Notes under the pieces: model-generated
What the model was told of the DNA's origin: nothing
Database searches by the model: none
Seen by the model: only the letters and a program-made list of their open reading frames with translations
Shown: positions 1-43,017 of the stretch, in pieces
How the letters are laid out: every line of letters begins with the position of its first letter
How positions within the stretch are numbered: position 1 is the first letter of the stretch
Position numbers and translations under genes: made by a program
NCBI GenBank assembly: GCA_001785675.1
Contig: MFUJ01000016.1
Location: forward strand, 149 to 64,148
DNA length: 64,000 nucleotides
Direction: 5' to 3'
DNA from: Candidatus Nomurabacteria bacterium RIFCSPHIGHO2_12_FULL_37_29
GTDB lineage: Bacteria; Patescibacteriota; Minisyncoccia; Phycocordibacterales; UBA9973

Positions 1-1665
1 ACAACAGCAACATTAAATGGCGACATAACAGCCACAGGTGGCGCCAATGCAACGGCTCGTGGATTCGAATATGGTACAACTATTTCCTATGGAACAAGTA
101 CCACGAGTAGTGGAAGCTATGGTATAGCTTCTTTCAGCGACAATATAACTTCACTTACCTGCGCCACGACATACCATTTTCGTTCCTATGCCACGAACTC
201 TGCCGGCACAGGATCAGGAGCTGATGCAACTTTCACAACCACAAGTTGTCCTTCCTCTGGCGGTGGCGGAGGCGGAAATAGCGGGCTTGGGGGAGGCGGT
301 GGTGGAGGAACGATAATTGTAAATGCACCAACAGTAGTGGAGATCATAGAAAATCCAATTGATTTTATCGATAATCAAATTATTACTCCAATTTTTACCA
401 CTATTGATAAAATAATTCCCTCATTTTTAAAACCTAAACCCGTTCCAGTAAAGCCTATTGTTCCAGTTGAAGAATTAGTGACAGAAAAGGTCCCGTTAGC
501 TTTGGGGGGTATATGGCAACTTTATCTTTTGCCTCAAAAAGCAGAATTTGTTTTAGCCCCTTTACCAAAAGCGATTAATGATCTGGCTCAAAAGTTCCCG
601 ACATTGGAACAAACTTTTAACGAAGTAGGTATTAGTAAAATTACCGATATTACAAAACTTAATAATATTAAATTAAACCTCCCTGGATTAACGGAAAGAG
701 TAGGTTTGTCGACTCTCAATATTAAACCCAGCATATTTTCTCTACCAGAGGGTATTCCGATCGGCAATCTATCACTAGCAACTAAAAAACAAATACCCGC
801 GGAAATTATCTTTGTTAAAACTGGCGCTGAATTGATTGATTTTAATCCTACTTTGTCTGTTTCTGATAAAGGCGAACCAGAGCAAAAAATCAACACAATC
901 TCTGGCAAACTTTTACAGTTAGCTGTAAAACCCGATAAACCAGTAGAGAGCGTGAAGGGCTATGTAGTCTTTAAATCAAGGGCAATCCGTTCAACTTCTT
1001 TAGAAATTCCGTCTGATTCTTTATTAGCATCAGCTATTTTTGCCACTCCAGTTTTTGCTCAAATAGAGGAGAAACCTGTTAGAGTTGAAGAAAAACTGGT
1101 TTTGCTCGAATTTTTATACACCGATATTGATGGTGATGGAATTTATACGGCTGAAATAAAGGCGCCTTTGGTTGAAGGTGAATATGAAATTATTACGGTA
1201 CTAGACTTTATCGATCCAGACTTGGGTAACAAACAAATTCGTTTGACTACCGTTGTTGACCCAGAGGGGTATGTTTATTCCACTTTGCCGGCAGGCAAAT
1301 TAAGAATCGCCGGAGCCGTTGTTTCTATTTATTGGTTAAACCCTGGAACCAAGAAATATGAAATATGGTCAGCCAAGGAATACCAGCAGGAAAATCCGCA
1401 AGTTACTGACGATACAGGCAAGTATTCTTTTTTAGTGCCCCCCGGCACATATTATTTAAGAATTGAACATCCTAATTATCCTGCTTATCAATCTGAAACT
1501 TTTGTGGTCAAAGAAGGCAGCGGAGTTCACATGAATATTGAGCTTAAAACTAAATACTGGTGGCTTCAGATTTTTGACTGGAAAACCACTTTATTAGTTC
1601 TAGTTATAATTTTATTGCTTTATAACTTTTATCGTGATAAAATGAGAGAGAGTTTAATGAAATAA
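1..1665 (+). CDS. 5'-truncated cell-surface protein with fibronectin-III-like repeat, Gly-rich linker, carboxypeptidase-regulatory-like beta-sandwich and C-terminal TM anchor
   Basis: Frame 1 is open from base 1. It encodes ...ARGFEYGTTISYGTS...TCATTYHFRSYATNSAG (fn3-like repeat common in CPR surface proteins), a GGGGGGNSGLGGGGGGG run, and KYSFLVPPGTYYLRIEHPNYPAYQSETFVV (CarbopepD_reg-like). A hydrophobic tail LLVLVIILLLY precedes the stop at 1663-1665. Confidence 0.55.
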   Translation, partial: TTATLNGDITATGGANATARGFEYGTTISYGTSTTSSGSYGIASFSDNITSLTCATTYHFRSYATNSAGTGSGADATFTTTSCPSSGGGGGGNSGLGGGGGGGTIIVNAPTVVEIIENPIDFIDNQIITPIFTTIDKIIPSFLKPKPVPVKPIVPVEELVTEKVPLALGGIWQLYLLPQKAEFVLAPLPKAINDLAQKFPTLEQTFNEVGISKITDITKLNNIKLNLPGLTERVGLSTLNIKPSIFSLPEGIPIGNLSLATKKQIPAEIIFVKTGAELIDFNPTLSVSDKGEPEQKINTISGKLLQLAVKPDKPVESVKGYVVFKSRAIRSTSLEIPSDSLLASAIFATPVFAQIEEKPVRVEEKLVLLEFLYTDIDGDGIYTAEIKAPLVEGEYEIITVLDFIDPDLGNKQIRLTTVVDPEGYVYSTLPAGKLRIAGAVVSIYWLNPGTKKYEIWSAKEYQQENPQVTDDTGKYSFLVPPGTYYLRIEHPNYPAYQSETFVVKEGSGVHMNIELKTKYWWLQIFDWKTTLLVLVIILLLYNFYRDKMRESLMK

Positions 1666-1672
1666 AGAATAT

Positions 1673-2035
1673 ATGAAAAACCCAAATAGAATTTTAATTC
1701 TCATTTTAGTTCTGCTTCTCGGTAATGTTTTTTTAGGCGTCAAATATTTTTCTGTTGCAAAAGAGCTTCGTCAGACCAAAACTCTTTCGGAAGCCCAAAA
1801 GGTCAATAATAAGGTTTTAGAATTTTCCAAGCTTTTTATTGAAAAAGTACTAAAAACCAAGACTGAAATTGATTTTGAAATGAGATTAAAACTTGAAAAC
1901 GCAGTTAGAGACTTAGGAGATAATGAAATTTTGGCTCAATGGTCCCAATTTATTGAAAGCACAACGGAAGCCAACGCGCAAGAAGAGGTTAAAAATTTAC
2001 TGGAATTATTAATAAACAAAATTAGGGTAAAATAA
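1673..2035 (+). CDS. hypothetical small membrane-anchored protein
   Basis: 120-aa ORF with an N-terminal hydrophobic helix (ILILILVLLLGNVFLGV). No recognisable domain. Confidence 0.35.
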   Translation: MKNPNRILILILVLLLGNVFLGVKYFSVAKELRQTKTLSEAQKVNNKVLEFSKLFIEKVLKTKTEIDFEMRLKLENAVRDLGDNEILAQWSQFIESTTEANAQEEVKNLLELLINKIRVK

Positions 2036-2180
2036 ATTTTGTTTCCATTGCATAGTACTTGTTTTTATGTCATTAAAGATCGGCATGGTGTGAGCGCTAC
2101 CCAACATCTCAACAATAATATAGCTATAAAGCAGGTACCATTTGAGTTTACGATAAACCTTCCACCGTCACTTAAAATTT

Positions 2181-2609
2181 TTGGTAATAAATAAAATATT
2201 AATTATGCAAATTTCTATTTTTGAAGAGGTGAAGCAGTTGAATTTTCCTTTTGGTAGTTATGCTGTCGTTGGTGGTGGTGTTATGGAAGCACACGGAATT
2301 CGCAATCATGGAGATGTTGATATTATTGTGACACGTGAATTTTTTGAAAAGTTAAAGAACCATGGTTGGGAATTAGTACATGGTAAAAATAATGTAATCA
2401 AAAAAGGGAATTATGAAATTGATGTGGATTTTAAATATGGAGACTATCAGCCTGACCATGAAGGATTAATAAGAGATGCAGAGATCATTAAGGGGGTGCC
2501 ATTTATGCGACTTGAGGAGCTTATTAAGTTTAAGAAAGCGCTTGGTAGGGATAAGGATAAAAAAGATATTGCGCTGGTGAAAAGATATTTGATAAAACAA
2601 AAAATTTAG
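2181..2609 (+). CDS. putative nucleotidyltransferase-fold protein
   Basis: GSYAVVGGGVMEAHGIRNHGDVDIIV resembles the Pol-beta-like NTase G[SG]...D.D motif. The start may instead be the ATG at 2205. Confidence 0.4.
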   Translation: MVINKILIMQISIFEEVKQLNFPFGSYAVVGGGVMEAHGIRNHGDVDIIVTREFFEKLKNHGWELVHGKNNVIKKGNYEIDVDFKYGDYQPDHEGLIRDAEIIKGVPFMRLEELIKFKKALGRDKDKKDIALVKRYLIKQKI

Positions 2610-2616
2610 ACTAATA

Positions 2617-3234
2617 TTGTTAATTATGGATACAGGGAAATTACTTTTAACATCAACAGGTCTATCTTCTGAAAATATCGCAAAAAGATTTCAGAGTTTT
2701 TTTGCTGATTCTGGAAGTCAGGCTGTTGCAATAATTACTACTGCTGCGGAGGGTAAGGAGCAAAATAAATATTCCCAATTAGCTAAAAAGCAGTTCAAGA
2801 AAATGGGATTTACTAAGATCGATTTTGTTGATCTCGAGACAGAGCCAACTATAGATTTTTCTTCGTATAGAGTAATTTATGTGTGTGGTGGAAACACATT
2901 TAAACTTCTAAAATTTGCACGAAAGGCAAATTTCCAGTCTTCGGTTAATAATCTCATAAAACGTAATGGTGTATATGTTGGTGTTAGTGCTGGAAGTATT
3001 ATTGTCAGTCCGTCTATTAATATTGCAAATGAGGTTGAGCCTGACTCAAATGATATTGGCTTAGAAGATCTTACTGGTTTTAATATCACTAATCTTATTA
3101 TTCTCCCACATTATTCTCCAGAAGTTGAGGAAGAAACAAAAGCTTTTGAGACAAAATATGGAGTTACTGTAGAACGTTTGAACAACTATCAGGCTGTCCT
3201 TATAGAAAACGGAGAAAAAACTATTATTGAATAA
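2617..3234 (+). CDS. peptidase S51 (dipeptidase E-like) / class I glutamine amidotransferase-like protein
   Basis: YVCGGNTFKLLKF and GVSAGSII motifs typical of the PepE/cyanophycinase family. Confidence 0.6.
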   Translation: MLIMDTGKLLLTSTGLSSENIAKRFQSFFADSGSQAVAIITTAAEGKEQNKYSQLAKKQFKKMGFTKIDFVDLETEPTIDFSSYRVIYVCGGNTFKLLKFARKANFQSSVNNLIKRNGVYVGVSAGSIIVSPSINIANEVEPDSNDIGLEDLTGFNITNLIILPHYSPEVEEETKAFETKYGVTVERLNNYQAVLIENGEKTIIE

Positions 3235-3237
3235 AAA

Positions 3238-3263
3238 TGGGGGCACACTTGCGTATGCCCCCA
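3238..3263. terminator. bidirectional hairpin terminator at the left border of the high-GC island
   Basis: Perfect 8-bp stem tgggggca/tgccccca with a 10-nt loop, lying between the convergent stops at 3234 (+) and 3266 (-). Confidence 0.5.
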
Positions 3264-3265
3264 TG

Positions 3266-4021
3266 TCAGATCAACCTCTTAATTTTACTCATCACATCCT
3301 TCACCCTTTTCCTCCTTGAGAGTTCTAGGGCAAGTTCATAGATGAGTAGGTCCGAAGACCTAAGGAGCCTTGCTTGCTGTTCAAGCGATCGGAATCCACG
3401 GAAGTATCTTCGACTATGCGCGAACGCAAGTCGAACCATCGAGGCCATGATATCCGAGAGGCATAATTCTCGCTCGAGAGTTGCATTTTCATGCAATTTC
3501 TCAAGCGTTGAGAGTTTCTGCCTGATCTCGTCAGCACACAGCTCAACGATAGATTTCGAGAGCGAGGCGGGGTAGGGAACAAGCAGCTCCCTAAGTCGGA
3601 CACTGATATCCGTAACATCATACAGAGTCTCGGCAGTTGCCAAGTCTCCGCACAACGCTTCTGGCAACCAGTATCCGGTAGCCCAGGGGCGGTGTTGACA
3701 GCCCAGATTCCTGCCCTCAATCCACTCCTCGACCTGCCTAACGAGCAAGGCTGAATCGCAAACTGCGACACCTCCAGAGCCCATCGGCAGATCAAAGCGA
3801 ACACTGTCATCGCACACAAAGAAGTTTCCGGTTGGCCACCGATTCTCTAGCAAAGCTTTGATGGTGTTGGAATATCTTTCAATACTCCCGTCATCACAGC
3901 CTGCCAAAAGGTCGATTTTGCCTTTTGCCGAATTCCTCTTCAGTCCAACATGTAGTAGCACTTTCATGCCATACAATTCACGCAAAACGTGAGACAGATC
4001 GGAGGCTAAGCTATTTTTCAT
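3266..4021 (-). CDS. hypothetical protein, possibly nucleotidyltransferase-like; last gene of the high-GC operon
   Basis: 251-aa ORF with high GC. Its start overlaps the stop of the upstream gene by 4 nt (4018-4021). No firm domain; KGKIDLLAGCDDGS and the helical C-terminus are only weakly NTase-like. Confidence 0.45.
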   Translation of the reverse strand: MKNSLASDLSHVLRELYGMKVLLHVGLKRNSAKGKIDLLAGCDDGSIERYSNTIKALLENRWPTGNFFVCDDSVRFDLPMGSGGVAVCDSALLVRQVEEWIEGRNLGCQHRPWATGYWLPEALCGDLATAETLYDVTDISVRLRELLVPYPASLSKSIVELCADEIRQKLSTLEKLHENATLERELCLSDIMASMVRLAFAHSRRYFRGFRSLEQQARLLRSSDLLIYELALELSRRKRVKDVMSKIKRLI

Positions 4022-5136
4022 AGTGCCTCCTTGTTCCGTTTCGACTCCTCAAGCTCGATAAGAGCCTTCGGAAATCCGAATGTGGACGTTAGATACTCGA
4101 TGTCTGATCCGGTCAGAGGGCCATTACTGCGAGAGGTAAGTTTTGTATATTCCTTCCTCCCACGCTCAAGCCCCTTCTCGAATTTTGACACCTCCTCGGC
4201 AAACACAGTCTGCACCGCATCAGCCGAGGCCCATTGATTTCCTGATATCACGACAAACTCATCAAATGAGATGGATGTCTGTCGGCAGAGGATGAAAGCC
4301 TCTCGGATGAGTTTCCGAAGGACATAATCCGCCGCTTTGTTTCCAGGCCGAAGCCCTTCCGATACCAGGAGTACCGCCGCTTTGCCGAGATCGGCGAGGC
4401 GACACATGATGGCTTGATCCTTTACTTCGGATTGTTCCGTGATGGATTCGATCACGCCTTTCCAGCTCGAGTTTTCGTAATCGCTGCCACAGCATTCGAC
4501 TGCTGTGACGATACGATCAATGCTCGCTCCCGAATCGGCGGCAATCTTCTCCAGGGGAGATTCGAAAAGCGTTTCGCCCAGAAACTCGGTAAAGACCAAG
4601 TTCCAGAGCTCGATCGACTTATCCGTGTCTGGATTTCTCCAGACGATCTCCGTGCGAATACCGCATCGATTCTGGGTCGGAGTAAAGGTGACGTTCTTGT
4701 CATTGCTGACAGTCCTGACACCCAACCTTTCCCATATTTTCTGCGATGTTGCATCTTGTGGATGCACTGTTGCCGACAGCGTGGCAGGGCTGATCCCTGC
4801 ACACACTGTCAGATAATGCCAAGCACTCTCGATCATTACATCCTTCACCTCTTGCTCCTTGCCCTCGTAGAGGGAAAAGTGGCCGAGCATGTCGAATGCA
4901 AGATGGTGCCTTCCCGACAAACCGATCTTCTCCCATCTATCTGTCCGCAAGCATGTCTGAACCGAAACGACACGGGTCTTCTCAGGGATTACTCCATGAG
5001 AGATCGCGTTCTCGAAAACGACACCGCCAGAGATGTTGAACAGGAGCTTAGGGTTTGCGCTTACGATTGGAACGCTGTCTTGCCACTGGAAACCGAAGGT
5101 CCCGAAGTGGCGTCTGATTTCATCATACGTCTTCAT
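4018..5136 (-). CDS. divergent alanyl-tRNA synthetase catalytic-domain homolog (mini-AlaRS-like, 372 aa)
   Basis: Class II AlaRS motifs are present: NPKLLFNISGGVVF, RHHLAFDMLGHFSLY, ELWNLVFTEF, ADSGASIDR and YVLRKLIREA. Motif 3 (GPCGPC) is degenerate (NRCGIRTE). The start is set at the ATG 5136-5134, which forms an ATGA overlap with the radical SAM stop. The longer ORF call to 5430 overlaps the upstream gene by 300 nt. Confidence 0.65.
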   Translation of the reverse strand: MKTYDEIRRHFGTFGFQWQDSVPIVSANPKLLFNISGGVVFENAISHGVIPEKTRVVSVQTCLRTDRWEKIGLSGRHHLAFDMLGHFSLYEGKEQEVKDVMIESAWHYLTVCAGISPATLSATVHPQDATSQKIWERLGVRTVSNDKNVTFTPTQNRCGIRTEIVWRNPDTDKSIELWNLVFTEFLGETLFESPLEKIAADSGASIDRIVTAVECCGSDYENSSWKGVIESITEQSEVKDQAIMCRLADLGKAAVLLVSEGLRPGNKAADYVLRKLIREAFILCRQTSISFDEFVVISGNQWASADAVQTVFAEEVSKFEKGLERGRKEYTKLTSRSNGPLTGSDIEYLTSTFGFPKALIELEESKRNKEAL

Positions 5137-6356
5137 GGAGAACCTCCCATTGCCAGATGTTTGAATACAGTCTGCCTGACTGCGTAGGTGAACTTGCTCA
5201 TCTCGGGATGAGTAACAAGTCCGTGGTTGATATCCCAACTCACTACGTGAGCCGGAATCCCGAGGCTGTCCAAGATACCCTGTGCTCGCTCCGCCGTCAT
5301 ATTGTAGGCTGAGCCTTGAGCGCAGATTCTCCGTTGGGCCAGAGGGCAGCGAGATGCCTCGCATTCTGACCGCGCGAAAATCTGTACCGAAGTGATGCTC
5401 GGAATCTTGAGCATCCGAGTAAGGGCGCACGACGACTTGAGATAGACGGGGATACCGGGAAAGTGTTCGGCGCTCAGTGAGAAGATGGAATCCACCAACT
5501 CCTGCGGCAACAACTTCACATTGTCATCCCGAGGGATGTTCGGCATGGGGAGCTTATGAATCTCCACCAGTCCGTTCTCGATACCTTCCGTCCAGCGCAG
5601 ACCGCCCGGAACGATCATGTCGATGACTTCGCCGTAGTGTTTTTTCACCCACAGCATCATCATCTCGATTCTGTCCCGATTACCGCTCCACTCAGGAACG
5701 ATCGGTCGCATGTACCACGCAATGGTGGCTCCTGCTTCCTTGGCTTCCTCAGAATTGAGAAAGCGGTTGTTATGCGCTGGCTCAATCGTGTCTGGATTGT
5801 CTGCCCAGCACAGCGACAGCATCAAGCCGCGCGTTGCATTCGAGATGCGGGCGAAGTCAAGCTTCCTCCCTTTAGGAACGCCACCTTTGGTAACGATCCA
5901 GAAGGGATTCCGTAGACCGCGCCGGACGAATCCGTCCATGATCTCGAATGTACTGTCTACGACAGCAGGAGCGAACGGCTCCGTGCTTGCTGTCCCGATG
6001 CTGATGATTGTCTCATCAGCAATGAAGAACGGATGCTTGACCAGTTCATCGAGGATTTGATCCACGCTAAACTGATTGCGCCGTTTCGGTTTTCTCGGCA
6101 TGGTGCCTCGCTCGTCGAGATCTTGGTAGGTCCCTTGAACGTGGCAGTACCGGCATTGCCAGGCGCAACCGATCCAGAGATCGATGCTCAGCGAGCTGTT
6201 GGACACACTGACTGATGAAAGGGGATGATTACTATCTGGCACGAGAGCTCCATACGTGTATTCACGCAAGGAAAACTCCTGTCCCGTAGTCGTGCCCCTG
6301 ATTTGGACGAGCGGCTCAGAATTAATGGCCGCGAAGTATTCCATCTTGGAATTCAT
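5133..6356 (-). CDS. radical SAM protein (SPL/DNA-photolyase-like family)
   Basis: CAWQCRYC is a CxxxCxxC cluster in the GC..C.YC context seen in spore-photoproduct-lyase-like radical SAM enzymes. 4-nt overlaps on both sides. Confidence 0.6.
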   Translation of the reverse strand: MNSKMEYFAAINSEPLVQIRGTTTGQEFSLREYTYGALVPDSNHPLSSVSVSNSSLSIDLWIGCAWQCRYCHVQGTYQDLDERGTMPRKPKRRNQFSVDQILDELVKHPFFIADETIISIGTASTEPFAPAVVDSTFEIMDGFVRRGLRNPFWIVTKGGVPKGRKLDFARISNATRGLMLSLCWADNPDTIEPAHNNRFLNSEEAKEAGATIAWYMRPIVPEWSGNRDRIEMMMLWVKKHYGEVIDMIVPGGLRWTEGIENGLVEIHKLPMPNIPRDDNVKLLPQELVDSIFSLSAEHFPGIPVYLKSSCALTRMLKIPSITSVQIFARSECEASRCPLAQRRICAQGSAYNMTAERAQGILDSLGIPAHVVSWDINHGLVTHPEMSKFTYAVRQTVFKHLAMGGSP

Positions 6357-7093
6357 GTGACTTCTCCTTTCAGGTAGTTGATGTTTCGTGTGACTTGTTC
6401 TTCCGTTGTCATACCAATGACAACGGAAGTGCCGAGGGTGAGTGCATTTCGTGCAACCATCTCGGCCGAGTGCGGGTCAGTGAGCAACTTCCCCTGTTTG
6501 AACAGACTTCTCAAGAGAACCTCCTTTTTAAGATCAAGCAGATATGGGAGCTGTTGAAGCGCCCAAGTCTGCTCAGTGTTGAAAGGAGCTTCAATCACGT
6601 CGATGTGCGGCAAAACCGCTTCAGCGACAGGATATGAGAAATTGTCGGGTAGGGAAATTCCTACACGCTTGACGATGCCTTCATCCTTAAGCCCCTTAAG
6701 GCACTCAAGGATTACTACTGCTTCTGACGACCACGTGGGCAACCAGTTGTGCAGAAGTACCGTGTCGATGGAAGATCGCCGTAGCCTTTCCAATGATCCG
6801 TACACACTTCGATGTATGCCATCTCGTGAGTAAAATCTTTGGATCGGTTCAGGTGCTTCCAGATTCGGTTTTGATGCTGCCGGAATTTTGGTCACAATGA
6901 CCGCATCTTCCGGTAGGCATGCGCCAAGCATCTCCTCGACCTTGCCTCCACCATAGACGGCCGCCGTATCAAAACGACGGATACCGGAGCTGATGGCGAA
7001 AAGCAGAAGCGATTCAATATAGGCAGGGGACAGGTTTTTGAACTGTCCTCCAAGTTGCCACGTACCGAAGTAGAGGCGATCAAACCAGTCCAT
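6353..7093 (-). CDS. aldo/keto reductase family oxidoreductase
   Basis: GTWQLGG...GIRRFDTAAVYGGGKVEEMLG is the aldo/keto reductase N-terminal signature. 246 aa; first gene of the minus-strand operon. Confidence 0.7.
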   Translation of the reverse strand: MDWFDRLYFGTWQLGGQFKNLSPAYIESLLLFAISSGIRRFDTAAVYGGGKVEEMLGACLPEDAVIVTKIPAASKPNLEAPEPIQRFYSRDGIHRSVYGSLERLRRSSIDTVLLHNWLPTWSSEAVVILECLKGLKDEGIVKRVGISLPDNFSYPVAEAVLPHIDVIEAPFNTEQTWALQQLPYLLDLKKEVLLRSLFKQGKLLTDPHSAEMVARNALTLGTSVVIGMTTEEQVTRNINYLKGEVT

Positions 7094-7275
7094 GTTTTCT
7101 CCTTAATTTTTAGGTTGTAAAAGAGCGTGGAATTGCGATAAGTTCTAGCACAAAACTACAATATATTCTCTAAAATGTCAATGGGTATCCCAAAAGGCGT
7201 ATCCTTGCCGTAATTATAATTGTGTGTTAATGTAATGCCGGAACGAAAACCCTAAACCACAGAAAGGACCTTGTA

Positions 7276-8568
7276 ATGAAACTGCTATATAAGACGACCG
7301 AGGAAGTGCGCCAGACCTTTCTGAGCCACTTTCTCAAGCATGATCACCAGCTCATCGATCCATCGGGGATCATTCCCAAGAACGATTCGACTCTCATGTT
7401 CATCAACTCGGGTATGGCCCCGCTCAAGCCATATTTCACGGGCCAAGCGAAACCGCCGTATCCGCGCCTGACGAACGTGCAGGACTGCATCAGGTTTGTG
7501 GACGTTGAAAGCGTCGGCGATTCCTATCACGGAACGAACTTCCGCATGATGGGTTCCTGGTCCTTCGGAGACTACTTCAAAGAACGGGCCATCGAGCTTG
7601 CCTTTGAACTCATCACCGAGGGATTCGGTATTCCTGCTGAACGTCTCTCCGCCACGGTATTCCTGGCAGACGAAAGTCTGCCAGGCGTACCGAGCGACGA
7701 AGAATCGGCTCGCATCTGGGAGAAATTCTTACCGCGAGATCGAATCATCGGACGGCCACCAGTAGACAACTTCTGGGGTCCAGCGGGAACCAGTGGTCCA
7801 TGTGGCCCTTGCACGGAAGTCTTCTTTGATCGAGGCGAGGAATTCGCCGAGAAAGAAACGGACGACGTGCTGGTTCCTGGGCGACACATCGAGATCTGGA
7901 ATGCCGGAGTGTTCATGCAATACTTCAAAGACGAGCAAGGGAATTTCTCTCCGCTCCCTATGAAGTGCGTGGATACGGGAGCGGGCCTTGAGCGCTTCGC
8001 CATGATCCTACAGGGCCGTGCCTCGATCCACGAGATCGATCAGTACGGCTCGTCCTACCAACTCATCAATCAGAGAATTGGTGACACGGCATGGACGAGG
8101 GTCATTCTCGACCACATCAAGACCTCGATTCTGATGATTCGTGAGGGTATCATTCCGAGCAACACTCGGGAGGGTTACCTTCTCCGTCGTGCGCTTCGGC
8201 GTGCGATGATCGGCATCTTCCTGCGAGGGATCAATCTGACCATTCTTCAGGAGTGGGCAGACTCTCTCAGCGAAGTGATCGATAACAAGGACCTGACCAT
8301 GCGTCAGAAATCTGTTATTGCACACTGGCTCAGCGAGGAGCGTGATAGCTTCGAAAAGCTGATGCATCGCAGCAGAAAGTATCTCGATAAGATCGTCATG
8401 GCTAAGGAGTTGGATGCGCAACATGCATTCACTTTGAAAACCGGCGTGGGTATTCCCGAAGATCTTCTGGAGGAATTCTGTTCTCGTCACGGCATTCCAT
8501 TTCCGAAGATTGAGTTCCTCCGACTTATTGAGGGGCATAAGGATGTCTCGCGTCGGCCGAAGAAGTAG
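7276..8568 (+). CDS. truncated alanyl-tRNA synthetase catalytic core (430 aa, no editing or C-Ala domains)
   Basis: Near-canonical AlaRS motifs: NSGMAPLKPYF, FRMMGSWSFGDYFK, GPCGPCTEVFFDRG, IEIWNAGVFMQYF, VDTGAGLERFAMIL and GYLLRRALRRA. The ORF ends in RRPKK* immediately before a terminator. High GC. Confidence 0.7.
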   Translation: MKLLYKTTEEVRQTFLSHFLKHDHQLIDPSGIIPKNDSTLMFINSGMAPLKPYFTGQAKPPYPRLTNVQDCIRFVDVESVGDSYHGTNFRMMGSWSFGDYFKERAIELAFELITEGFGIPAERLSATVFLADESLPGVPSDEESARIWEKFLPRDRIIGRPPVDNFWGPAGTSGPCGPCTEVFFDRGEEFAEKETDDVLVPGRHIEIWNAGVFMQYFKDEQGNFSPLPMKCVDTGAGLERFAMILQGRASIHEIDQYGSSYQLINQRIGDTAWTRVILDHIKTSILMIREGIIPSNTREGYLLRRALRRAMIGIFLRGINLTILQEWADSLSEVIDNKDLTMRQKSVIAHWLSEERDSFEKLMHRSRKYLDKIVMAKELDAQHAFTLKTGVGIPEDLLEEFCSRHGIPFPKIEFLRLIEGHKDVSRRPKK

Positions 8569-8590
8569 TTCTTTTTGTCTGCACTATGTG

Positions 8591-8630
8591 GAGCCCACCC
8601 GTTAACAAGACGGGCGGGCTCTTTTTTGTT
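8591..8630 (+). terminator. rho-independent terminator at the right border of the high-GC island
   Basis: gagcccacccg-ttaacaa-gacgggcgggctc forms a 12-13-bp stem and is followed by a TTTTTTGTTTTT run. Confidence 0.6.
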
Positions 8631-8696
8631 TTTATGAATATTTATTTAATAAAAAATTAAGTTTCTTTTTGCTTCGCATTTTGCTATATTCAATAA

Positions 8697-9548
8697 ATGT
8701 TAAAGATCGGGATTGTTGGTCTGCCAAATGTGGGGAAGTCCACGCTTTTTAATGCGTTGACGAAAAAGAGTGTACCAGCAGAAAATTATCCCTTTTGTAC
8801 TATTGATCCATCGGTAGGTATTGTTCCTGTGCCAGATGAAAGATTAGATAAACTATCAGCCATGTCTAAGTCCAAGAAAAAGATTCCTGCAGTGGTAGAA
8901 TTTGTAGATATTGCGGGATTGGTGAAGGGGGCAAGCGAGGGCGCAGGACTCGGTAATAAATTCCTTTCCCATATTAGAGAAGTGGATGCAATCATTGAAG
9001 TGGTGCGAATTTTTGAAGATAAAGATATGATTCATGTTCACGATAATATTGACCCGCTTTTTGATATTGAAGTTATAAATTTTGAACTTGAACAAGCTGG
9101 AATTACAAAACCGACTTTGTATGTGCTTAACACATCAGAAGCGGCAGAGAGTGTGAAAAAAGATTTTATATCAAAACTTCCAGGCCCACATATTGAAATT
9201 GATCCTATTTTTGGAACTGGTTTGGATAATCTAGTACAAGCAAGCTACGATCTTTTAAATTTAATTACTTTTTTCACTACCGGCGAAGATGAATCGAGGG
9301 CTTGGACTACGTTTCGTGGAGCGACCGCGCCTTTTGCTGGTCGCGCTATCCATAATGATTTTAAAGAAAAATTTATCCGCGCAGAAGTAATTAACTGGAA
9401 AGATTTATTAGACTGTGGCCGTTCAGGCTCTGAAGAGCCCTCAGGCTCGATGAGCTCTTATGTTGTCGCTCGCTCCAAAGGACTAGTGCGAACTGAAGGT
9501 AAAGAGTATATTGTGCAAGATGGAGATGTGATTGAATTTTTAATATGA
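8697..9548 (+). CDS. ychF: ribosome-binding ATPase YchF (Obg-like ATPase), short form
   Basis: IGIVGLPNVGKSTLFNALT...NYPFCTIDP...VEFVDIAGLVKGAS at the N-terminus and a C-terminal TGS-like YIVQDGDVIEF. 283 aa, versus about 363 aa typically. Confidence 0.75.
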   Translation: MLKIGIVGLPNVGKSTLFNALTKKSVPAENYPFCTIDPSVGIVPVPDERLDKLSAMSKSKKKIPAVVEFVDIAGLVKGASEGAGLGNKFLSHIREVDAIIEVVRIFEDKDMIHVHDNIDPLFDIEVINFELEQAGITKPTLYVLNTSEAAESVKKDFISKLPGPHIEIDPIFGTGLDNLVQASYDLLNLITFFTTGEDESRAWTTFRGATAPFAGRAIHNDFKEKFIRAEVINWKDLLDCGRSGSEEPSGSMSSYVVARSKGLVRTEGKEYIVQDGDVIEFLI

Positions 9549-9674
9549 GAAATAAAATTTTGAATACAATTTTTCTCCGGTACGAATTTTTTGAAGCTTA
9601 AAAAATCCTGAAGTTTGTTCGCCGTCGCTCACAAAACCCCTGCGAAAAGTTTATTCAAAATTTTATAAATCAAC

Positions 9675-10562
9675 ATGAAACAAATCAAAATTTTTTATTC
9701 AGAGAGTTGGACAGACTATGAACTTCTAGATACTGGAGAGGGAGAAAAATTGGAGCATTTTGGTTCATATACTTTTGTGCGTCCATTAGAAGATGCTTTT
9801 TGGTCAAAAACTTTATCCCAAAAAGAATGGGACAAAGCTAATGGTAAATTTTGGAGTTCAAAAGTAGGTGCAAAGGCAGGGTGGAAAATGCAAGGCAAAA
9901 TTGAAGAGAAATGGAAAATGTCATGTAAAAATATTAAATTTTTTGCCTCTCCCACACCATTTCGTCATTTGGGATTTTTCCCAGAACAAGCTGTGCATTG
10001 GGATTTTATAGAAAAGAAAATTAAGCAATCAAAAAAACCAGTTAAATTTCTAAATTTATTTGGTTACACTGGTGTGGCGAGTCTTTTTGCTCTGCGTGCT
10101 GGGGCGGAGGTGACACATATTGATGCTTCAAAGCAAATTTTAAATTGGGCAAAAGAAAACCAAAAATTATCAGATCTTAATAAATTACCTATGCGTATTA
10201 TTGAAGATGATGTTTTAAAATTTTTGGAGCGTGAAGTAAAAAGAGGAAATAAGTATGATGCTATCATCATGGATCCGCCAAAGTTCGGCAGGGGACCTAA
10301 AGGGGAAATTTGGAAATTGGAAGTTATGCTTCCAAAACTTCTTGCACAAGTACAAAAAGTTTTAAGTGATAAGCCACTTTTTGTAATTTTAACTTCTTAC
10401 GGAATTGATTCTTCATCATTAACACTCGGCTATGCACTTGCTGACATGATGAAAAATTTTACTGGCGATGTTGAGGCAGGTGAGCTTTGTGTGCTAGAAA
10501 AATCCAACAATCGTCTTATTTCATTAGCAAATACGGCTGTCTGGAGTGTACTTTCTAAATAA
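9675..10562 (+). CDS. class I SAM-dependent methyltransferase (RlmI/YccW-like rRNA m5C methyltransferase family)
   Basis: LNLFGYTGVASLFALRAGA-EVTHIDAS...IIMDPPKFGRGPKGEIW matches SAM motifs I and IV of the RlmI-like family. Confidence 0.6.
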   Translation: MKQIKIFYSESWTDYELLDTGEGEKLEHFGSYTFVRPLEDAFWSKTLSQKEWDKANGKFWSSKVGAKAGWKMQGKIEEKWKMSCKNIKFFASPTPFRHLGFFPEQAVHWDFIEKKIKQSKKPVKFLNLFGYTGVASLFALRAGAEVTHIDASKQILNWAKENQKLSDLNKLPMRIIEDDVLKFLEREVKRGNKYDAIIMDPPKFGRGPKGEIWKLEVMLPKLLAQVQKVLSDKPLFVILTSYGIDSSSLTLGYALADMMKNFTGDVEAGELCVLEKSNNRLISLANTAVWSVLSK

Positions 10563-11675: not shown

Positions 11676-14084
11676 GTGATGAAAGAATACGACCATAAAA
11701 AAATCGAGAAAAAGTGGCAAACTATTTGGCAAGAAAACAAAGTATATAAAACTCTGGACAACTCCAAGAAAAAAAAGTTTTATGTCTTGGATATGTTTCC
11801 TTATGTTTCCGGGGAAGGTATTCACGTCGGGCATCCGAAAGGATACATAGCGACTGATGTGGTTTCCAGAATGAAAAGGATGCAGGGTTTCAATGTGTTG
11901 CACCCAATGGGCTTTGATGCCTTCGGTCTTCCGGCGGAGAATTACGCCATCAAGACGAAGACAAATCCTGTGATATCAGTAGCAAAAAATATTGCTAGAT
12001 TTAAAAAACAATTAGCAATTATTGGTTTTGATTATGACTGGGAGAGAGAAGTCAATACTTCTGACCCGAAGTTTTATAAATGGACTCAGTGGATATTTTT
12101 GAAGCTTTTGGAAAAGGGTTTGGCTTACGAATCTAATGAACCGGTGAACTGGTGTCCAAAAGACAGAACTGTTTTAGCCAATGAAGATGTGGAAGATGGA
12201 AAATGTGAAAGATGCGGAACTATTGTTGAGAAGAAGCCCATTCGTCAGTGGGTTTTGAAAATCACTGATTATGCTGACAGACTGCTTGCAGACTTAGATG
12301 AACTCGATTGGCCGGAATCTATAAAAGAGTCACAGAAGAATTGGATCGGCAGGAGTGAAGGTGCAGAAATTAATTTTCAAATTATATTTAAAAATGGAGG
12401 TAAACCTGGCTTGATACCAATTTTTACCACGAGGCCAGATACTATCTTTGGTGCTACATACTTAGTTCTTTCTCCTGAACATCCTTGGGTGACTCTGGCA
12501 ATAGACGATAATCACAAAGGAGTGATAGATAATGTCCTTGAGGTAGGGAAGTATGTTAAAGAAGTTAAAAACAAAAATGACATAGAGCGTACATCTCTAG
12601 ACAAAGTAAAGACAGGGGTAGAGCTCAAAGGAGTAAAAGCAATTAATCCAGCAACGAGAGAAGAAATTCCTGTCTGGATCGCAGACTATGTACTTCTGAA
12701 CTACGGTACTGGGGCAGTCATGGCAGTACCAGCCGATGATGCGCGCGACAGAGAGTTTTCAGAAAAATTTAAGTTGCCAATTTTTGAAAATTATCAAAAA
12801 GCCGGGTTTGAAGATTTTGGGAAAAAAGTTATAAAATTTAAACTTCGGGACTGGGTATTTTCTCGCCAGAGGTATTGGGGTGAACCGATTCCTATCTTGC
12901 GTGTCGTAGATCCTGAGGGGATCGAAGGAATGGGCAAGGTTATTCCAGTTAAAGAAAAAGATTTGCCTGTTAAATTGCCAAAAGTTAAATCTTACGAGCC
13001 GACAGGAACTGCAGAGTCGCCTTTGGCTAATGTGTCAAATTGGATAAATGTAAAAAAAGGCCAGAAAATCTTTAAGAGAGAGAGTAACACCATGCCTCAA
13101 TGGGCTGGTAGTTCTTGGTATTATCTTCGTTATATGGATCCAAAGAATAACAAAGCATTGGTTGATAAAAAAAAAGAAAAATATTGGAATATGGTGGATT
13201 TGTATGTTGGTGGCGCAGAACATGCGACTAGACACTTGATATACGCGAGGTTTTGGCATAAATTCCTCTATGATATAGGTGTTGTTGAAAATAAAGAACC
13301 TTTCAAAAGACTTCAACACGTGGGGCTTATTATAGCTTCTGATGGAAGAAAGATGTCAAAAAGGTTTGGAAATATTATAAATCCAGATACTGTAATTCAT
13401 ACTTTCGGTGCAGACACACTACGACTTTATGAAATGTTTATGGGGCCATTTGATCAAGCAGTTGCTTGGAGTGAGGAAGCAATAATAGGCCCAAGGAGAT
13501 TTTTAGAGAGAGTTTGGAAAATTGGAAAGAAAGTAAAAGAAAGGGAGACAAAGGATTTTCTGAGCCTTCGCCCTCGGAGTCGTAAGGGCAGGGAACCCAC
13601 GACTCTTGAAAATCCTTTGTCTCCCTTTCTTCAGAAACTCCTACACAAAACTATCAAAAAAGTTACAGAAGACATCGAAGCAATGAAATTTAATACTGCG
13701 ATTTCTTCACTCATGATTTTTATGAATGAAGTTGAGAAGTTTGATTCGCTCTCGTCAGATGTGTATAAAAAATTCTTACAGATTCTTGCGCCATTTGCGC
13801 CGCATATCACCGAAGAGTTATGGAATATGCTTGGAGAGAAAAAGTCTATCCATCTTTCATCCTGGCCAAAATATGATTCAGAGAAAATAAAAGACAAAGA
13901 AATAAAAATCATAGTACAAATAAACGGCAAAGTCAGAGCCGAGATTTTAGTAGAAGGGGATGAGACAGAAGAAAATATAAAGCAAAAATCTCTCAAGAAT
14001 GAAGCTGTCTCAAAATATACAGAAGATAAAGAAATAAAAAAAATAATTTATGTTAAAAACAGACTTATTAACATTGTACTGTAG
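11676..14084 (+). CDS. leuS: leucyl-tRNA synthetase
   Basis: HVGH (HIGH) motif in YVLDMFPYVSGEGIHVGHPKGY, KMSKRFGN (KMSKS), a CP1 editing domain, and the LeuRS-specific C-terminus. Confidence 0.9.
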   Translation: MMKEYDHKKIEKKWQTIWQENKVYKTLDNSKKKKFYVLDMFPYVSGEGIHVGHPKGYIATDVVSRMKRMQGFNVLHPMGFDAFGLPAENYAIKTKTNPVISVAKNIARFKKQLAIIGFDYDWEREVNTSDPKFYKWTQWIFLKLLEKGLAYESNEPVNWCPKDRTVLANEDVEDGKCERCGTIVEKKPIRQWVLKITDYADRLLADLDELDWPESIKESQKNWIGRSEGAEINFQIIFKNGGKPGLIPIFTTRPDTIFGATYLVLSPEHPWVTLAIDDNHKGVIDNVLEVGKYVKEVKNKNDIERTSLDKVKTGVELKGVKAINPATREEIPVWIADYVLLNYGTGAVMAVPADDARDREFSEKFKLPIFENYQKAGFEDFGKKVIKFKLRDWVFSRQRYWGEPIPILRVVDPEGIEGMGKVIPVKEKDLPVKLPKVKSYEPTGTAESPLANVSNWINVKKGQKIFKRESNTMPQWAGSSWYYLRYMDPKNNKALVDKKKEKYWNMVDLYVGGAEHATRHLIYARFWHKFLYDIGVVENKEPFKRLQHVGLIIASDGRKMSKRFGNIINPDTVIHTFGADTLRLYEMFMGPFDQAVAWSEEAIIGPRRFLERVWKIGKKVKERETKDFLSLRPRSRKGREPTTLENPLSPFLQKLLHKTIKKVTEDIEAMKFNTAISSLMIFMNEVEKFDSLSSDVYKKFLQILAPFAPHITEELWNMLGEKKSIHLSSWPKYDSEKIKDKEIKIIVQINGKVRAEILVEGDETEENIKQKSLKNEAVSKYTEDKEIKKIIYVKNRLINIVL
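13543..13625. repeat. 83-bp palindromic element inserted in-frame within leuS
   Basis: Perfect 18-bp terminal inverted repeats, gggagacaaaggattttc and gaaaatcctttgtctccc, flank a GC-rich core with its own hairpin (gccct..agggc). The element encodes the extra peptide KDFLSLRPRSRKGREPTTLENPLSP. Confidence 0.6.
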
Positions 14085-19361: not shown

Positions 19362-19444
19362 TCAAATAAATGAATAAATCCTGTGCGAAATTCACAGGAC
19401 ATATGTTATGCTGTAATAGTTATTAAATAATTAATTTCTACAGA

Positions 19445-21124
19445 ATGGAGAAGATTTTTAAGATTTTTAATAAAGAATATGTAAATATAAACCAAGCTGC
19501 GCTTCTTTTGGGGTGTTTTGCTTTCCTCTCTCAAATTTTGGCGTTATTTCGTGATCGCGCCTTCGCTCATTTTATTGGACCCTCTGCAACACTAGACATT
19601 TATTATGCGGCCTTTAGGATACCGGATCTTATATTTATATCTGTTGCTTCGCTTGCCTCGATCACTGTACTTATTCCTTTTCTAGTAGCAAAAATGAATG
19701 GTGATGCAGTAACAAGTGAAGCCCGAAAATTTTTAAATGATATTTTCACTGCTTTTTTTCTTGTGATGATAGGTGTTTCCATAACTGTTTTCTTTTTAAT
19801 GCCGTATTTAGTATCTTTTATTGCTCCGGGTTTTGATCCACTTTTGCAGACAAAAGTAGTTGTGCTTTCACGTATAATGTTGCTTTCACCTATTTTGATG
19901 GGACTTTCAAATCTTTTCGGGACAGTAACTCAGCTTTTTCGTAAGTTTTTTATTTATTCTTTAAGTCCCATTTTCTATAATTTAGGAATTATTATCGGTG
20001 TGATGTTTTTCTATTCTATTTGGGGGATTTATGGGTTAGCGATGGGAGTCGTTTTTGGGGCCTTGATGCATTTTATAATCCAGGTATTTGCCTCGACAAC
20101 TTTTGGATTTACGCCCCAATTTTCTTTTTCAATCAATTTTCAAGATATCAAGCGAGTGACGATGACTTCACTGCCAAGGACACTGGGCTTAGCTTTTAAT
20201 AATATAGCTTTGATTTCTATTATCGCTCTCGCTTCGTATTTGGAGAGTGGTTCTATCTCAATTTTTAATCTTTCATTAAATCTTCAATCAGTGCCCCTTA
20301 ATATTATTGGTATATCCTATGCAGTGGCTGCTTTTCCCACCCTAGCGAAGTCTGTTTCTCTCGGCAAAATGGATGAGTTTAAAGAACATCTTAAAGGAGC
20401 TGCTCGCGCTATCGTATTTTGGTCACTTCCAGTAATGTTTCTTTTTATTGTGGTTCGAGCGCAAATCGTAAGAGTTATTTTAGGTTCCGGGTCTTTCTCT
20501 TGGGAAAATACTCGATTAGTCGCGGCATCACTAGCAATTTTTTCTGTTTCAGTTGTTGCTCAGGGGATGATTGCTCTTTTGTCTCGAGCTTATTATGCGA
20601 AAGGTGATACAAAAACTCCACTCACAGTTAATCTGATCTGTTCTATTTTAATCATAATATTATCCTTTATTTTCATTAATCTTTTTGAGAATATGATTCT
20701 GTTTAGATTTTTTATAGAGTCCATACTAAAGGTTGCTGATATTTCTGGCACGCAAGTGTTGATGCTTCCGCTTGCATATTCTCTCGGTACGATTGTAAAT
20801 TCTATTGTTCTCTGGTTTTTTGTGAGACGTGACTTTATGAAAGGGGATTCCTTTATTACTAAAACTTTTTTCCAAAGTTTGGGCGCTGCGTTCTTCTTAG
20901 GACTTGTGGCATATCTCTCTTTAAATATACTTTCACCGATCTTTGGTACCACCACTTTCTGGGGTGTATTCTTCCAAGGTTTTATTTCTGGGATTTTAGG
21001 TATTTTTGTCGCTATTTTTGTATTGTATTTTTTGAATAATGAGGAATTAAAGGACATAGTAAAAACTTTTAAAACTAAATTCTGGCGTGCCAAAGTTGTC
21101 GCACCCTCTCAGGAGGGACTCTAA
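19445..21124 (+). CDS. murJ: lipid II flippase MurJ (MviN family)
   Basis: LGCFAFLSQILALFRDRAFAHFIGPSATLDIYYAAFRIPDLIF is the MurJ N-terminal signature. About 14 TM helices. Confidence 0.8.
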   Translation: MEKIFKIFNKEYVNINQAALLLGCFAFLSQILALFRDRAFAHFIGPSATLDIYYAAFRIPDLIFISVASLASITVLIPFLVAKMNGDAVTSEARKFLNDIFTAFFLVMIGVSITVFFLMPYLVSFIAPGFDPLLQTKVVVLSRIMLLSPILMGLSNLFGTVTQLFRKFFIYSLSPIFYNLGIIIGVMFFYSIWGIYGLAMGVVFGALMHFIIQVFASTTFGFTPQFSFSINFQDIKRVTMTSLPRTLGLAFNNIALISIIALASYLESGSISIFNLSLNLQSVPLNIIGISYAVAAFPTLAKSVSLGKMDEFKEHLKGAARAIVFWSLPVMFLFIVVRAQIVRVILGSGSFSWENTRLVAASLAIFSVSVVAQGMIALLSRAYYAKGDTKTPLTVNLICSILIIILSFIFINLFENMILFRFFIESILKVADISGTQVLMLPLAYSLGTIVNSIVLWFFVRRDFMKGDSFITKTFFQSLGAAFFLGLVAYLSLNILSPIFGTTTFWGVFFQGFISGILGIFVAIFVLYFLNNEELKDIVKTFKTKFWRAKVVAPSQEGL

Positions 21125-21174
21125 ACTCGTTTTCTGGGCTTTGAAATAAGGGCTTTTTCTGGTAGAATGGCAGA

Positions 21175-42874: not shown

Positions 42875-43017
42875 ATATTTTTTGTCCCAAAAAAGGGGCA
42901 ATAGTTAAGATCCTGTAATCGCTAAACCACAAGACCACTATTACCCCTTTTCTGGATTGAAAATATGGAATCTTATTGTCTCGTGGTTTAGCTTATTAAT
43001 TATATCATGTTTTAAAG

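Follow-up and report, generated by a model that had tools for sequence, protein, structure and literature searches.

The closest precedent for the locus described here, and the only described system with a comparable logic, is the ascamycin pathway of Streptomyces sp. 80H647 (Zheng et al., ACS Catal 2024, reviewed in PMC12945691). In this pathway Ala-tRNA(Ala) is made by AcmD, an alanyl-tRNA synthetase (AlaRS). AcmF, which is AlaRS-like but truncated, consists only of the aminoacylation and tRNA-recognition domains and has lost its activation residues (N219Q, D232E). It takes alanine from the tRNA and attaches it to dealanylascamycin, on the sulfamate nitrogen, and the hydrolase AcmE takes the alanine off again (PMC12945691). 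We describe here a set of six genes with two AlaRS-derived proteins and a peptidase. It is found in a stretch of 64,000 nt (the window) of contig MFUJ01000016.1 from Candidatus Nomurabacteria bacterium RIFCSPHIGHO2_12_FULL_37_29, one of the Patescibacteria or Candidate Phyla Radiation (CPR). The six products are a mini-AlaRS (Ala430), a truncated AlaRS paralogue (AlaL372), a radical S-adenosylmethionine (radical SAM) enzyme, rSAM, an aldo/keto reductase (AKR), a protein of 251 aa (hyp251) and a peptidase of family S51.

Reduced forms of AlaRS are also known. An N-terminal fragment of the enzyme can aminoacylate tRNA and viral mini-AlaRS exist (PMC10036535; bioRxiv 10.1101/2023.05.29.542759), and CPR bacteria reportedly possess a separate 'small-AlaRS' that includes an editing domain (bioRxiv 10.1101/2023.05.29.542759). 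A genome-mining paper on AlaX deacylases concerns editing-domain proteins and not the AlaRS-like proteins studied here (PMC13149037). In the literature on AlaRS in Patescibacteria and on this combination of genes we found no description of the cluster, in agreement with a first-pass annotation of the same DNA, which had not recognised it as a described one.

The comparison of this locus with others indicates that its genes very probably form a dedicated module with no housekeeping role. The best explanation, by analogy with ascamycin, is a mobile biosynthetic cassette of six genes which would make an N-alanylated small molecule, a reading that we hold at even odds.

Recurrence of the cassette and related clusters

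The first-pass annotation had left open whether the radical SAM and AKR genes are ordinary neighbours of the AlaRS-like genes. They decisively are not. The same set is found in more than 25 independent loci and in many lineages, with protein identities of 34–92% and unrelated flanks, and hyp251 appears fused to rSAM, to AKR or to an AlaRS-like protein. The sample of loci comprised contigs and, for each species, one genome. The complete or nearly complete sequences with the cassette include CP064996.1 (943 kb), JBBTQS010000001.1 (534 kb) and CAZQUL010000001.1 (1.34 Mb), together with the contig Ga0172379_10000034 of 341 kb. Homologues of the cassette proteins come from Uhrbacteria, Paceibacterota, Buchananbacteria, Yonathbacteria, Saccharibacteria and similar groups. 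Ala430, AKR, rSAM, AlaL, hyp251 and S51 occur in at least four gene orders with differing flanking genes, an arrangement which is far beyond chance.

The gene order of the window is also found in L004, L007, L012 and L013. Two convergent operons, rSAM-AlaL-hyp251 and AKR-Ala430-S51, are present in L001, L003, L010 and L098, the last of which lies near a methylase/helicase pair. All six genes are co-directional in L093, and L015, L025 and L026 show further variants of the order. The Peptidase_S51 gene adjoins the cassette in nearly all loci of Patescibacteria. A group of low-GC metagenome-assembled genomes (MAGs) from the gut (L018–L024), labelled by their submitters as Bacilli or Clostridia, have a hyp251::AKR fusion and a Peptidase_S66 in place of S51; one of them, L021, also has an AlaRS core of 453 aa and a GNAT acetyltransferase which follows the S66 gene. 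No Ala430 gene is found within about 8–10 kb in L014, L017, L018, L019, L023 and L024. In the gut lineage a RelA/SpoT-type (p)ppGpp synthetase/hydrolase stands before the cassette (L018, 4872–6356; L021, 31–831), and after the cassette of L018 comes an AMP-binding, acyl-adenylate-forming enzyme (11681–13483).

Related clusters are found in cultured Firmicutes. Thermoactinomyces sp. DSM 45892 (L094) has a hyp251 homologue, an AKR, an rSAM, a phosphopantetheine (PP-binding) carrier protein, a class II ligase, an ATP-grasp ligase, a condensation-like protein, an S51 peptidase and an exporter of the major facilitator superfamily (MFS). The best match of its class II ligase among solved structures is Bll0957, an amino-acid:[acyl-carrier-protein] ligase. 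Priestia megaterium (L095/L096; strain assembly GCA_035726625.1) has the same set with a MazG-like gene and with no hyp251 homologue identified. Neither cluster has an AlaRS-like gene. To judge from their genes, these clusters clearly have the architecture of secondary metabolism. Read in the same way, hyp251, AKR, rSAM and S51 are a shared module, in which the part that would activate and attach an amino acid is interchangeable. The first-pass annotation had proposed that the AlaRS-like proteins transfer an aminoacyl group, with a small molecule, a carrier or a tRNA-like substrate as acceptor. The carrier protein, its ligase, the ATP-grasp ligase and the exporter support this reading for a small molecule. 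The Thermoactinomyces cluster is placed between prophage tail, holin and amidase genes (1–3527) and a type I restriction-modification system (18346–21245), a variable region which resembles a defence island.

Other Patescibacteria have more distant versions. Every distant member of the family of about 430 aa that we examined has as neighbours another AlaRS-like gene, which is shorter, and a peptidase, and the tailoring enzymes differ. In L089 (8001–15030) a 430-type AlaRS and an AlaRS-like protein of 367 aa flank an Aminotran_4 protein, a WelO5-like 2-oxoglutarate-Fe(II) oxygenase/halogenase, a GFO/IDH oxidoreductase, a Peptidase_S51 and a YqcI/YcgG protein. The cluster of a Moranbacteria genome (L090, 2422–13570) contains a Peptidase_S66, an ornithine/diaminopimelate (Orn/DAP) decarboxylase, methyltransferases, two dCTP-deaminase-like proteins, an AlaL/Ala430 pair, a carbamoyltransferase and a protein similar to dihydroorotate dehydrogenase. 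L091 (7808–14463) and L092 (7811–14133) have an AlaL-type gene which overlaps the 430-type AlaRS, two methyltransferases, a Peptidase_S66 and a third stand-alone core of a class II aminoacyl-tRNA synthetase (tRNA-synt_2, about 370 aa) which has no anticodon-binding domain; only L091 has an AdoMet decarboxylase.

Table 1. Features of the cassette in the window, with their positions and strand
Feature	Position	Strand	Remarks
Peptidase_S51 (205 aa)	2617-3234	+	Sixth member of the cassette, convergent with hyp251; PF03575
hyp251 (251 aa)	3266-4021	-	N-terminal half resembling Pol-beta-type nucleotidyltransferases, helical half resembling DUF4037
AlaL372 (372 aa), truncated AlaRS paralogue	4018-5136	-	PF01411
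Radical SAM enzyme, rSAM (407 aa)	5133-6356	-	CxxxCxxC; type resembling spore photoproduct lyase (COG1533)
Short aldo/keto reductase, AKR (246 aa)	6353-7093	-	AKR11-like; PF00248
AT-rich intergenic region between AKR and Ala430, divergent	7094-7275	.	GC 0.365-0.41; presumed promoters and leaders in both directions
Ala430 (430 aa), mini-AlaRS	7276-8568	+	PF01411
GC-rich foreign block of five genes	3266-8568	.	GC 0.50-0.54, GC3 0.52-0.64

Layout, base composition and mobility

Four genes form an operon on the minus strand, in the order AKR, rSAM, AlaL372 and hyp251, and Ala430 is divergent from it (Table 1). The first-pass annotation had given this layout with the same positions. Its three ATGA overlaps between stop and start codons, at 6353–6356, 5133–5136 and 4018–4021, were confirmed base by base, and a ribosome binding site of the GGAG type precedes each of the three starts. 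The longest reading frame of AlaL372 starts with a GTG at 5430. We have kept the ATG at 5136, as had been proposed, because the homologues, all of 370–380 aa, align from that point. The five genes of the earlier description stand, although a sixth one had been missed: the gene of Peptidase_S51 lies outside the range which had been considered.

The window has an overall GC content of about 0.36, with the character of low-GC Patescibacteria. We have compared the GC content and the GC content at third codon positions (GC3) of the five cassette genes with those of the other window genes tested, the rest of the window being taken as host DNA. The five genes form a sharp island, which had not been mentioned before: their GC3 (Table 1) compares with 0.22–0.35 in every other gene tested. 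The Peptidase_S51 gene, with a GC3 of 0.218, is host-like, unlike the five others. Throughout the loci the GC content of the cassette is 0.49–0.53, whatever that of the host (0.36–0.60).

The locus L093 is syntenic with the window and has S51, the cassette, ychF, leuS, a tetratricopeptide repeat protein and murJ in the same order. In this pair YchF is 74% and LeuS 56% identical, whereas the cassette proteins are only 29–49% identical (46% for Ala430) and in L093 have the GC content of the host. The window cassette is 91–94% identical to that of an unrelated contig, L010 (87% for hyp251), and its proteins reach 95% identity with copies in unrelated genomes. By this pattern the window holds a recently acquired allele, where a related lineage holds a resident and diverged cassette. 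On this sequence evidence the five GC-rich genes are a foreign, horizontally mobile allele. In positions 2000–10000 of the window a search for repeats found no flanking direct or inverted repeats, no att-like sites and no integrase at the borders of the island, and the tRNA scan found no tRNA there. About 33 kb away there is a large serine recombinase (580 aa, XisF/Ccr-like) and a primase-like protein of 735 aa (41159–45225), beside a tRNA-Tyr (41205–41288). It is probably an integrated mobile element which has no relation with the cassette.

In the convergent arrangement a segment of 73–107 nt, with promoter, leader, ribosome binding site and start, is found in inverted orientation before both operons (L010, 8681–8787 and 14622–14728; L098, 9193–9265 and 15091–15163). 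This duplication indicates that both operons share one regulatory sequence. By reading, the part of the intergenic region of the window which is proximal to AKR resembles the duplicated leader of L010. Rfam searches with permissive thresholds gave no credible match, either for the duplicated leader or for the cassette with its intergenic region. The inverted duplication also explains the recurrence of contigs of about 5.9 kb, since it breaks de Bruijn assemblies at that point. We had considered such contigs as a small circular or hairpin-ended replicon and rejected it: their terminal inverted repeats of 30 nt correspond to the k-1 of the assembler. A decay of the cassette in a genome of 943 kb was also rejected. 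Nearly every gene of that region is split, most likely due to indel errors of long reads.

The proteins of the cassette and their possible function

Ala430 matches PF01411 with 334.9 bits and TIGR00344 with 344.5 bits, below the equivalog cutoff of 457; AlaL372 matches them with 144.8 and 151.8 bits, the latter also below that cutoff. The first-pass annotation had called both of them catalytic-domain proteins. This has to be corrected: the coverage of PF01411 extends to positions 403–429, so that both include the tRNA-recognition domain. It had rightly noted that Ala430 has neither the editing (tRNA_SAD) nor the C-Ala domain. The protein ends after the tRNA-recognition domain, shows no match to PF07973 and aligns end to end with the N-terminal fragments of the Aquifex aeolicus and Escherichia coli enzymes. 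AlaL372 also ends there, with no match to PF07973; it spans positions 10–403 of the 552 of PF01411 and has no further domain.

The motifs GPCGPC, DTGAGLER and WSFGDYFK are present in Ala430, as had been reported. The protein is less canonical than then claimed, with an insertion and two substituted sites. The insertion of one residue (EIWNAGVFMQ instead of EIWNLVFMQ) is found in the whole family, in the strand which carries the pocket Asn and Val. Ala430 also has SYHGTNFRMMGSW where AlaRS has RHHTFFEMLGNF, and the Asp of the motif YDTYGFP is replaced by Lys in Ala430 and by Ser in AlaL372. AlaL372 keeps RHHLAFDMLGHF and ELWNLVF and has lost the GPCGPC loop. As the earlier annotation had it, its adenylate and alanine-pocket residues (Arg, Asn, Val, Asp and Gly) are kept and its motif 3 has diverged to DSGASIDR. 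The residues R73, N209, V212, D233, G235 and R240 (numbering of Ala430) are invariant in the Ala430 family, in the AlaL family and in canonical AlaRS, the alanine-binding Asp and Gly among them; all columns which could be aligned to the ATP/alanine site are invariant, namely the Arg of motif 2, the Glu that precedes WN, the Asn, Val, Asp and Gly, and the Arg of motif 3.

Both proteins belong to large families. The Ala430 family, marked by the insertion WN[AG]GVF, has more than 120 clusters with 40–94% identity and is large in Patescibacteria; the name that NCBI gives to this family of about 430 aa is 'alanine--tRNA ligase-related protein'. Its identity with the small-AlaRS-like proteins (P0106) is about 34%, with the motif WGPAG common to both. 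The AlaL372 family has about 104 clusters with 34–92% identity, all of them of 350–395 aa and distinct from other AlaRS-like proteins. Throughout this family the tRNA-recognition domain is kept, which argues for tRNA binding. In the AlaL partners of L090–L092 the pocket Asp is changed to Glu and the Trp is lost. Among the distant matches there are proteins of about 600–620 aa with PF01411 and PF07973, which fit the reported small-AlaRS. Independent frameshifts break Ala430 in L003 (3851–5144) and L012 (6586–7877), where the other cassette genes are intact; the gene could be dispensable there, or these could be assembly errors.

Could Ala430 simply be the housekeeping AlaRS, in mini or split form, with neighbours which are ordinary or belong to an unrelated operon? 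Its active site and its tRNA-recognition domain are complete, and reduced enzymes of this kind do aminoacylate tRNA or occur in viruses (PMC10036535; bioRxiv 10.1101/2023.05.29.542759). It is also the most conserved protein of the cassette (88–95%), and there is no other alaS in the window. A search for AlaRS editing domains in 588 kb of Patescibacteria DNA found none, a result which is uninformative on a separate housekeeping alaS. Against this, Ala430 has a foreign GC3 (0.64), and it is 94% identical to copies in unrelated genomes while the syntenic copy of L093 diverges far more than its neighbours ychF and leuS. Its linkage with an AlaL-type gene and a peptidase is constant, in clusters which vary; it is missing from a number of cassette loci and carries frameshifts in two (with the possible assembly errors just mentioned), and some of its otherwise invariant positions are substituted. 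Furthermore, a small-AlaRS with an editing domain has been reported in CPR (bioRxiv 10.1101/2023.05.29.542759). We thus find a housekeeping role very improbable; in particular, the sequence makes it unlikely that Ala430 is one half of a split enzyme. As for genome annotation, hundreds of CPR proteins annotated as 'alanyl-tRNA synthetase' are probably not the housekeeping enzyme.

The combination of a class II synthetase, a radical SAM enzyme, an oxidoreductase and transfer as a block has a formal likeness to pylS/pylB/pylC/pylD, and AlaL372 has an intact active site of synthetase type and a tRNA-recognition domain. One might then think of an expansion of the genetic code like that of pyrrolysine, with enzymes for a non-canonical amino acid and a dedicated synthetase and tRNA. 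Such a reading is extremely unlikely. The tRNA scan of the window and of 26 loci detected no tRNA in the cassette or consistently near it, there is no conserved non-coding RNA, and the residues of the alanine pocket are unchanged. The Firmicute versions, moreover, swap the synthetases for carrier-protein chemistry and an exporter.

The rSAM protein belongs to the radical SAM superfamily, with the CxxxCxxC motif (C64/68/71) and a partial TIM-barrel fold; C183, C310, C332, C337 and C345 are also invariant, and these five additional Cys point to a second Fe-S cluster. It is a structural neighbour of the spore photoproduct lyase (SPL) / Rv2578c family (COG1533) and not a member of it: it scores 22.7 bits against NF038135, whose cutoff is 430, and is 15% identical to 4fhc. 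Its family has 261 clusters, which carry the JGI label 'DNA repair photolyase' and include cultured Firmicutes. Profile searches with the rSAM and hyp251 families against the PDB gave no real matches. A phage collection has no rSAM match and a plasmid collection has only distant relatives, on Labrenzia/Roseibium plasmids and in an unrelated operon. In the plasmid pBCL1 of Labrenzia sp. CP4 (L097, 9058–12677) the SPL-like rSAM (28.6% identity) shares its operon with a 3'-5' exonuclease, an AAA ATPase and an HD-domain protein. This operon is carried by mobilizable plasmids, beside a large N-6 DNA methylase, and it is a different and uncharacterised system.

The hyp251 family is small: an exhaustive search over 1.84 billion representative proteins yielded 119 clusters. 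A match to DUF4037 is found in 4 of 12 members and to Polbeta in 1 of 12, whereas the window protein has only DUF4037 at an E value of 0.2. Among the relatives above the family cutoff P0427 matches NTP_transf_2 and P0409 matches DUF4037. The homologues of the gut lineage and of Thermoactinomyces have the full VGS...DxD(L) motif, the latter with a value of 99.6% in hhalign. In the subfamily of the window the first Asp of GS...DxD is lost (VGL...KIDLL, then DD) and the Pol-beta motif is not full. From the sequences hyp251 appears to be nucleotidyltransferase-like, with a domain of the Pol-beta type and a helical domain similar to DUF4037. The AlphaFold2 model is poor (pLDDT 47.7), and the top Foldseek matches are all nucleotidyltransferase folds, none of them significant; the weak ones include tRNA nucleotidyltransferases and MenT. 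The fold is thus only suggestive. The fusions are rSAM::hyp251, AlaRS-like::hyp251 and hyp251::AKR, the last one in the gut lineage and in P0398, P0400, P0431 and P0454. Since hyp251 is fused to three different partners, there is strong evidence that AlaL, hyp251, AKR and rSAM act together.

The two remaining enzymes are easier to assign. AKR has 101.6 bits for PF00248 (cutoff 24); the profile covers only part of the barrel and the protein is short. When aligned to YhdN (1pz1), the segments DTA, VYG, TK and LHN fall in the region of the Asp/Tyr/Lys/His tetrad. Peptidase_S51 (99.3 bits for PF03575) has as its nearest solved relatives Lmo0363, DR_1070 and peptidase E; the nucleophile motif G-x-S-A-G is aligned, with GVSAGS facing the GESAGA of Lmo0363.

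A macromolecule might be the target of these enzymes. EpmA and GluQRS keep a complete adenylate-forming site, and on their model, or that of EpmA/EpmB, the target alanylated by AlaL372 would be a nucleoside of tRNA or else a protein, while rSAM, the nucleotidyltransferase-like protein and AKR would prepare or modify the target. The tRNA-recognition domain kept by both AlaRS-derived proteins and the complete adenylate-forming site of AlaL372 agree with it, as do the proximity of rSAM to spore photoproduct lyase, a nucleic-acid enzyme which acts on DNA, and the weak fold matches of hyp251 to CCA-adding tRNA nucleotidyltransferases and MenT. We consider it nevertheless quite unlikely: the Firmicute module, with its carrier protein, amino-acid:carrier-protein ligase, ATP-grasp ligase, condensation-like protein and MFS exporter, follows the logic of small molecules, a peptidase is always present, the tailoring enzymes vary widely between clusters, and there is no linked tRNA gene or known RNA.

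A cassette for resistance or detoxification has also to be weighed. Ala430 would then be an AlaRS insensitive to an inhibitor, the peptidase (in some versions with GNAT) would destroy an aminoacyl-nucleotide toxin and the other enzymes would modify it; in a variant of this idea the product is a modified nucleotide active against phages. The one-residue insertion beside the pocket Asn and Val fits such a role, and so do the S66 and GNAT proteins of L021 (MccF and MccE-C types), the absence of an exporter, the behaviour of the cassette as mobile DNA and the surroundings of L094 and L098 described above. It leaves unexplained the conserved and variously fused rSAM, AKR, nucleotidyltransferase-like protein and second AlaRS-like protein, as well as the Firmicute clusters with ligases, carrier protein and exporter. 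The PADLOC models gave no match at E <= 0.1 with hyp251, AlaL372, rSAM, AKR and Ala430 (S51 was left out), rSAM is on no phage, and a PHROGs search gave only unannotated or weak matches. Taken together, these points make resistance distinctly improbable as the role of the cassette.

A small-molecule pathway with ligation of an amino acid is in our opinion probable. In the mechanism that we propose, hyp251, AKR and the SPL-like rSAM, possibly as a complex, would build a scaffold which bears an amine and perhaps comes from a nucleotide or nucleoside; a nucleoside-type scaffold is rather doubtful. Ala430, which has no editing domain, would make Ala-tRNA(Ala) for the pathway and may double as an AlaRS resistant to the product. 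AlaL372 would then put the alanyl group on the scaffold, either from Ala-tRNA, as AcmF does, or from its own alanyl-adenylate, which is possible because its ATP-site residues are intact. Finally, the S51 peptidase would take the alanyl group off, either for activation or for self-protection. Such a division of labour, similar to that of AcmD, AcmF and AcmE, is proposed tentatively, as falling slightly short of an even balance.

A wider reading would be that Patescibacteria and some reduced gut Firmicutes have a large unrecognised family of exchanged, tRNA-dependent cassettes with two AlaRS, which make alanyl-nucleoside-type mimics of alanyl-adenylate, as inhibitors or prodrugs directed to AlaRS. 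The mini-AlaRS with WN[AG]GVF would be an inhibitor-resistant synthetase and S51 or S66 the enzyme of immunity or activation. We regard it as unlikely. If true, it would give to these episymbionts a chemical weapon or a tool of host manipulation against translation.

The interest of the cassette lies in its hosts and in its chemistry. Almost no natural-product chemistry is known from Patescibacteria, organisms with minimal genomes and a life on other microbes, and a small-molecule pathway with an alanine tag is not yet described in them. Here a compact cassette of six genes is conserved in many CPR lineages, passes between hosts which differ widely in base composition and has a scaffold module in common with clusters of cultured Firmicutes. 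If our reading is true, the use of aminoacyl-transferases derived from AlaRS, whose sole known case is AcmF (2024), would extend from a single Streptomyces pathway to a family of clusters. The parts which load the amino acid would be interchangeable, either an AlaRS pair or a carrier-protein ligase with an ATP-grasp ligase, and a new chemistry of SPL-like radical SAM enzymes would be involved. Thermoactinomyces sp. DSM 45892 and Priestia megaterium can be cultured and offer tractable entry points where the reading can be tested.

Comparison with known systems

The window cassette shares with EpmA/EpmB, which carry out the beta-lysylation of elongation factor P, and with the pyl cassette the association of a class II synthetase paralogue and a radical SAM enzyme; pyl also moves as a block. 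It differs from them in its SPL-like rSAM, which is neither an aminomutase of the KamA type nor a PylB, in having no dedicated tRNA and in the small-molecule logic of its clusters. Ala430 has the same reduced architecture as the viral mini-AlaRS (PMC10036535), with no domain besides the catalytic one and that for tRNA recognition. The small-AlaRS of CPR and DPANN differ from it by keeping the editing domain; the WN[AG]GVF proteins are a separate family, always accompanied by a second AlaRS-like gene and a peptidase.

The amino-acid:[carrier-protein] ligases of the Bll0957/Atu2573 type are similar in being enzymes derived from aminoacyl-tRNA synthetases which load an amino acid for non-ribosomal chemistry, and they are used in the Firmicute versions. 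The window cassette differs by having no carrier protein and by enzymes derived from AlaRS, not from SerRS, which keep the tRNA-recognition domain.

Peptidases of the S66 (MccF) family and GNAT are the two enzyme types known to detoxify aminoacyl-nucleotide antibiotics, as in microcin C immunity. The domain set of MccD, MccE and MccF reappears in the related clusters, which have S66, GNAT, a pyridoxal phosphate-dependent decarboxylase of the Orn/DAP family and a methyltransferase; in L090 the S66 peptidase, the decarboxylase and the methyltransferase correspond to the domain trio of MccF, MccE-N and MccD. Microcin C differs by its E1-like adenylyltransferase of the MccB type and its precursor peptide, neither of which was seen here, and the window has S51 instead of S66 and no GNAT, decarboxylase or methyltransferase. 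Considering the replacement by S66, the GNAT of L021, the decarboxylase and methyltransferase of L090 and the nucleotide flavour of the nucleotidyltransferase-like protein, MazG and SPL-like rSAM, we infer that an aminoacyl-nucleotide-like product is attractive.

The ascamycin system remains the nearest, and several points count against a pathway of this kind in the window. AlaL372 keeps the residues for ATP and alanine activation which AcmF has lost, and from its sequence it may work on its own, as a synthetase or a ligase, and not as a transferase dependent on tRNA. The Asp which contacts G3:U70 in E. coli AlaRS is absent from both Ala430 and AlaL372; recognition of tRNA(Ala) is therefore not assured. 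The hyp251 of the window is devoid of one of the three nucleotidyltransferase carboxylates. The S51 and S66 peptidases have no relation with AcmE, an alpha/beta-hydrolase, and the cassette has neither an exporter nor the sulfamate and nucleoside-antibiotic genes of the acm cluster. Every step of the mechanism given above is drawn from gene content and comparison. Other differences concern the SPL-like rSAM, the AKR and the nucleotidyltransferase-like protein, which have no acm counterpart, and the hosts, which are Patescibacteria and low-GC gut MAGs instead of actinomycetes.

The likeness lies in the general plan. Both systems have two AlaRS-derived proteins, one with full residues and one truncated, together with a hydrolase, so that Ala430, AlaL and the peptidase can be mapped onto the Acm triad, in a comparison which rests on the published description of AcmD and AcmF. 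Ala430 has the residues and domains expected of a supplier like AcmD, although it is absent from some cassette loci. AlaL372, as AcmF, has only the aminoacylation and tRNA-recognition domains, and the AlaL partners of L090–L092 share with AcmF the change of the pocket Asp to Glu. Since AlaL372 keeps a full activation site, we say that the cassette may work like the Acm triad rather than being a member of it.

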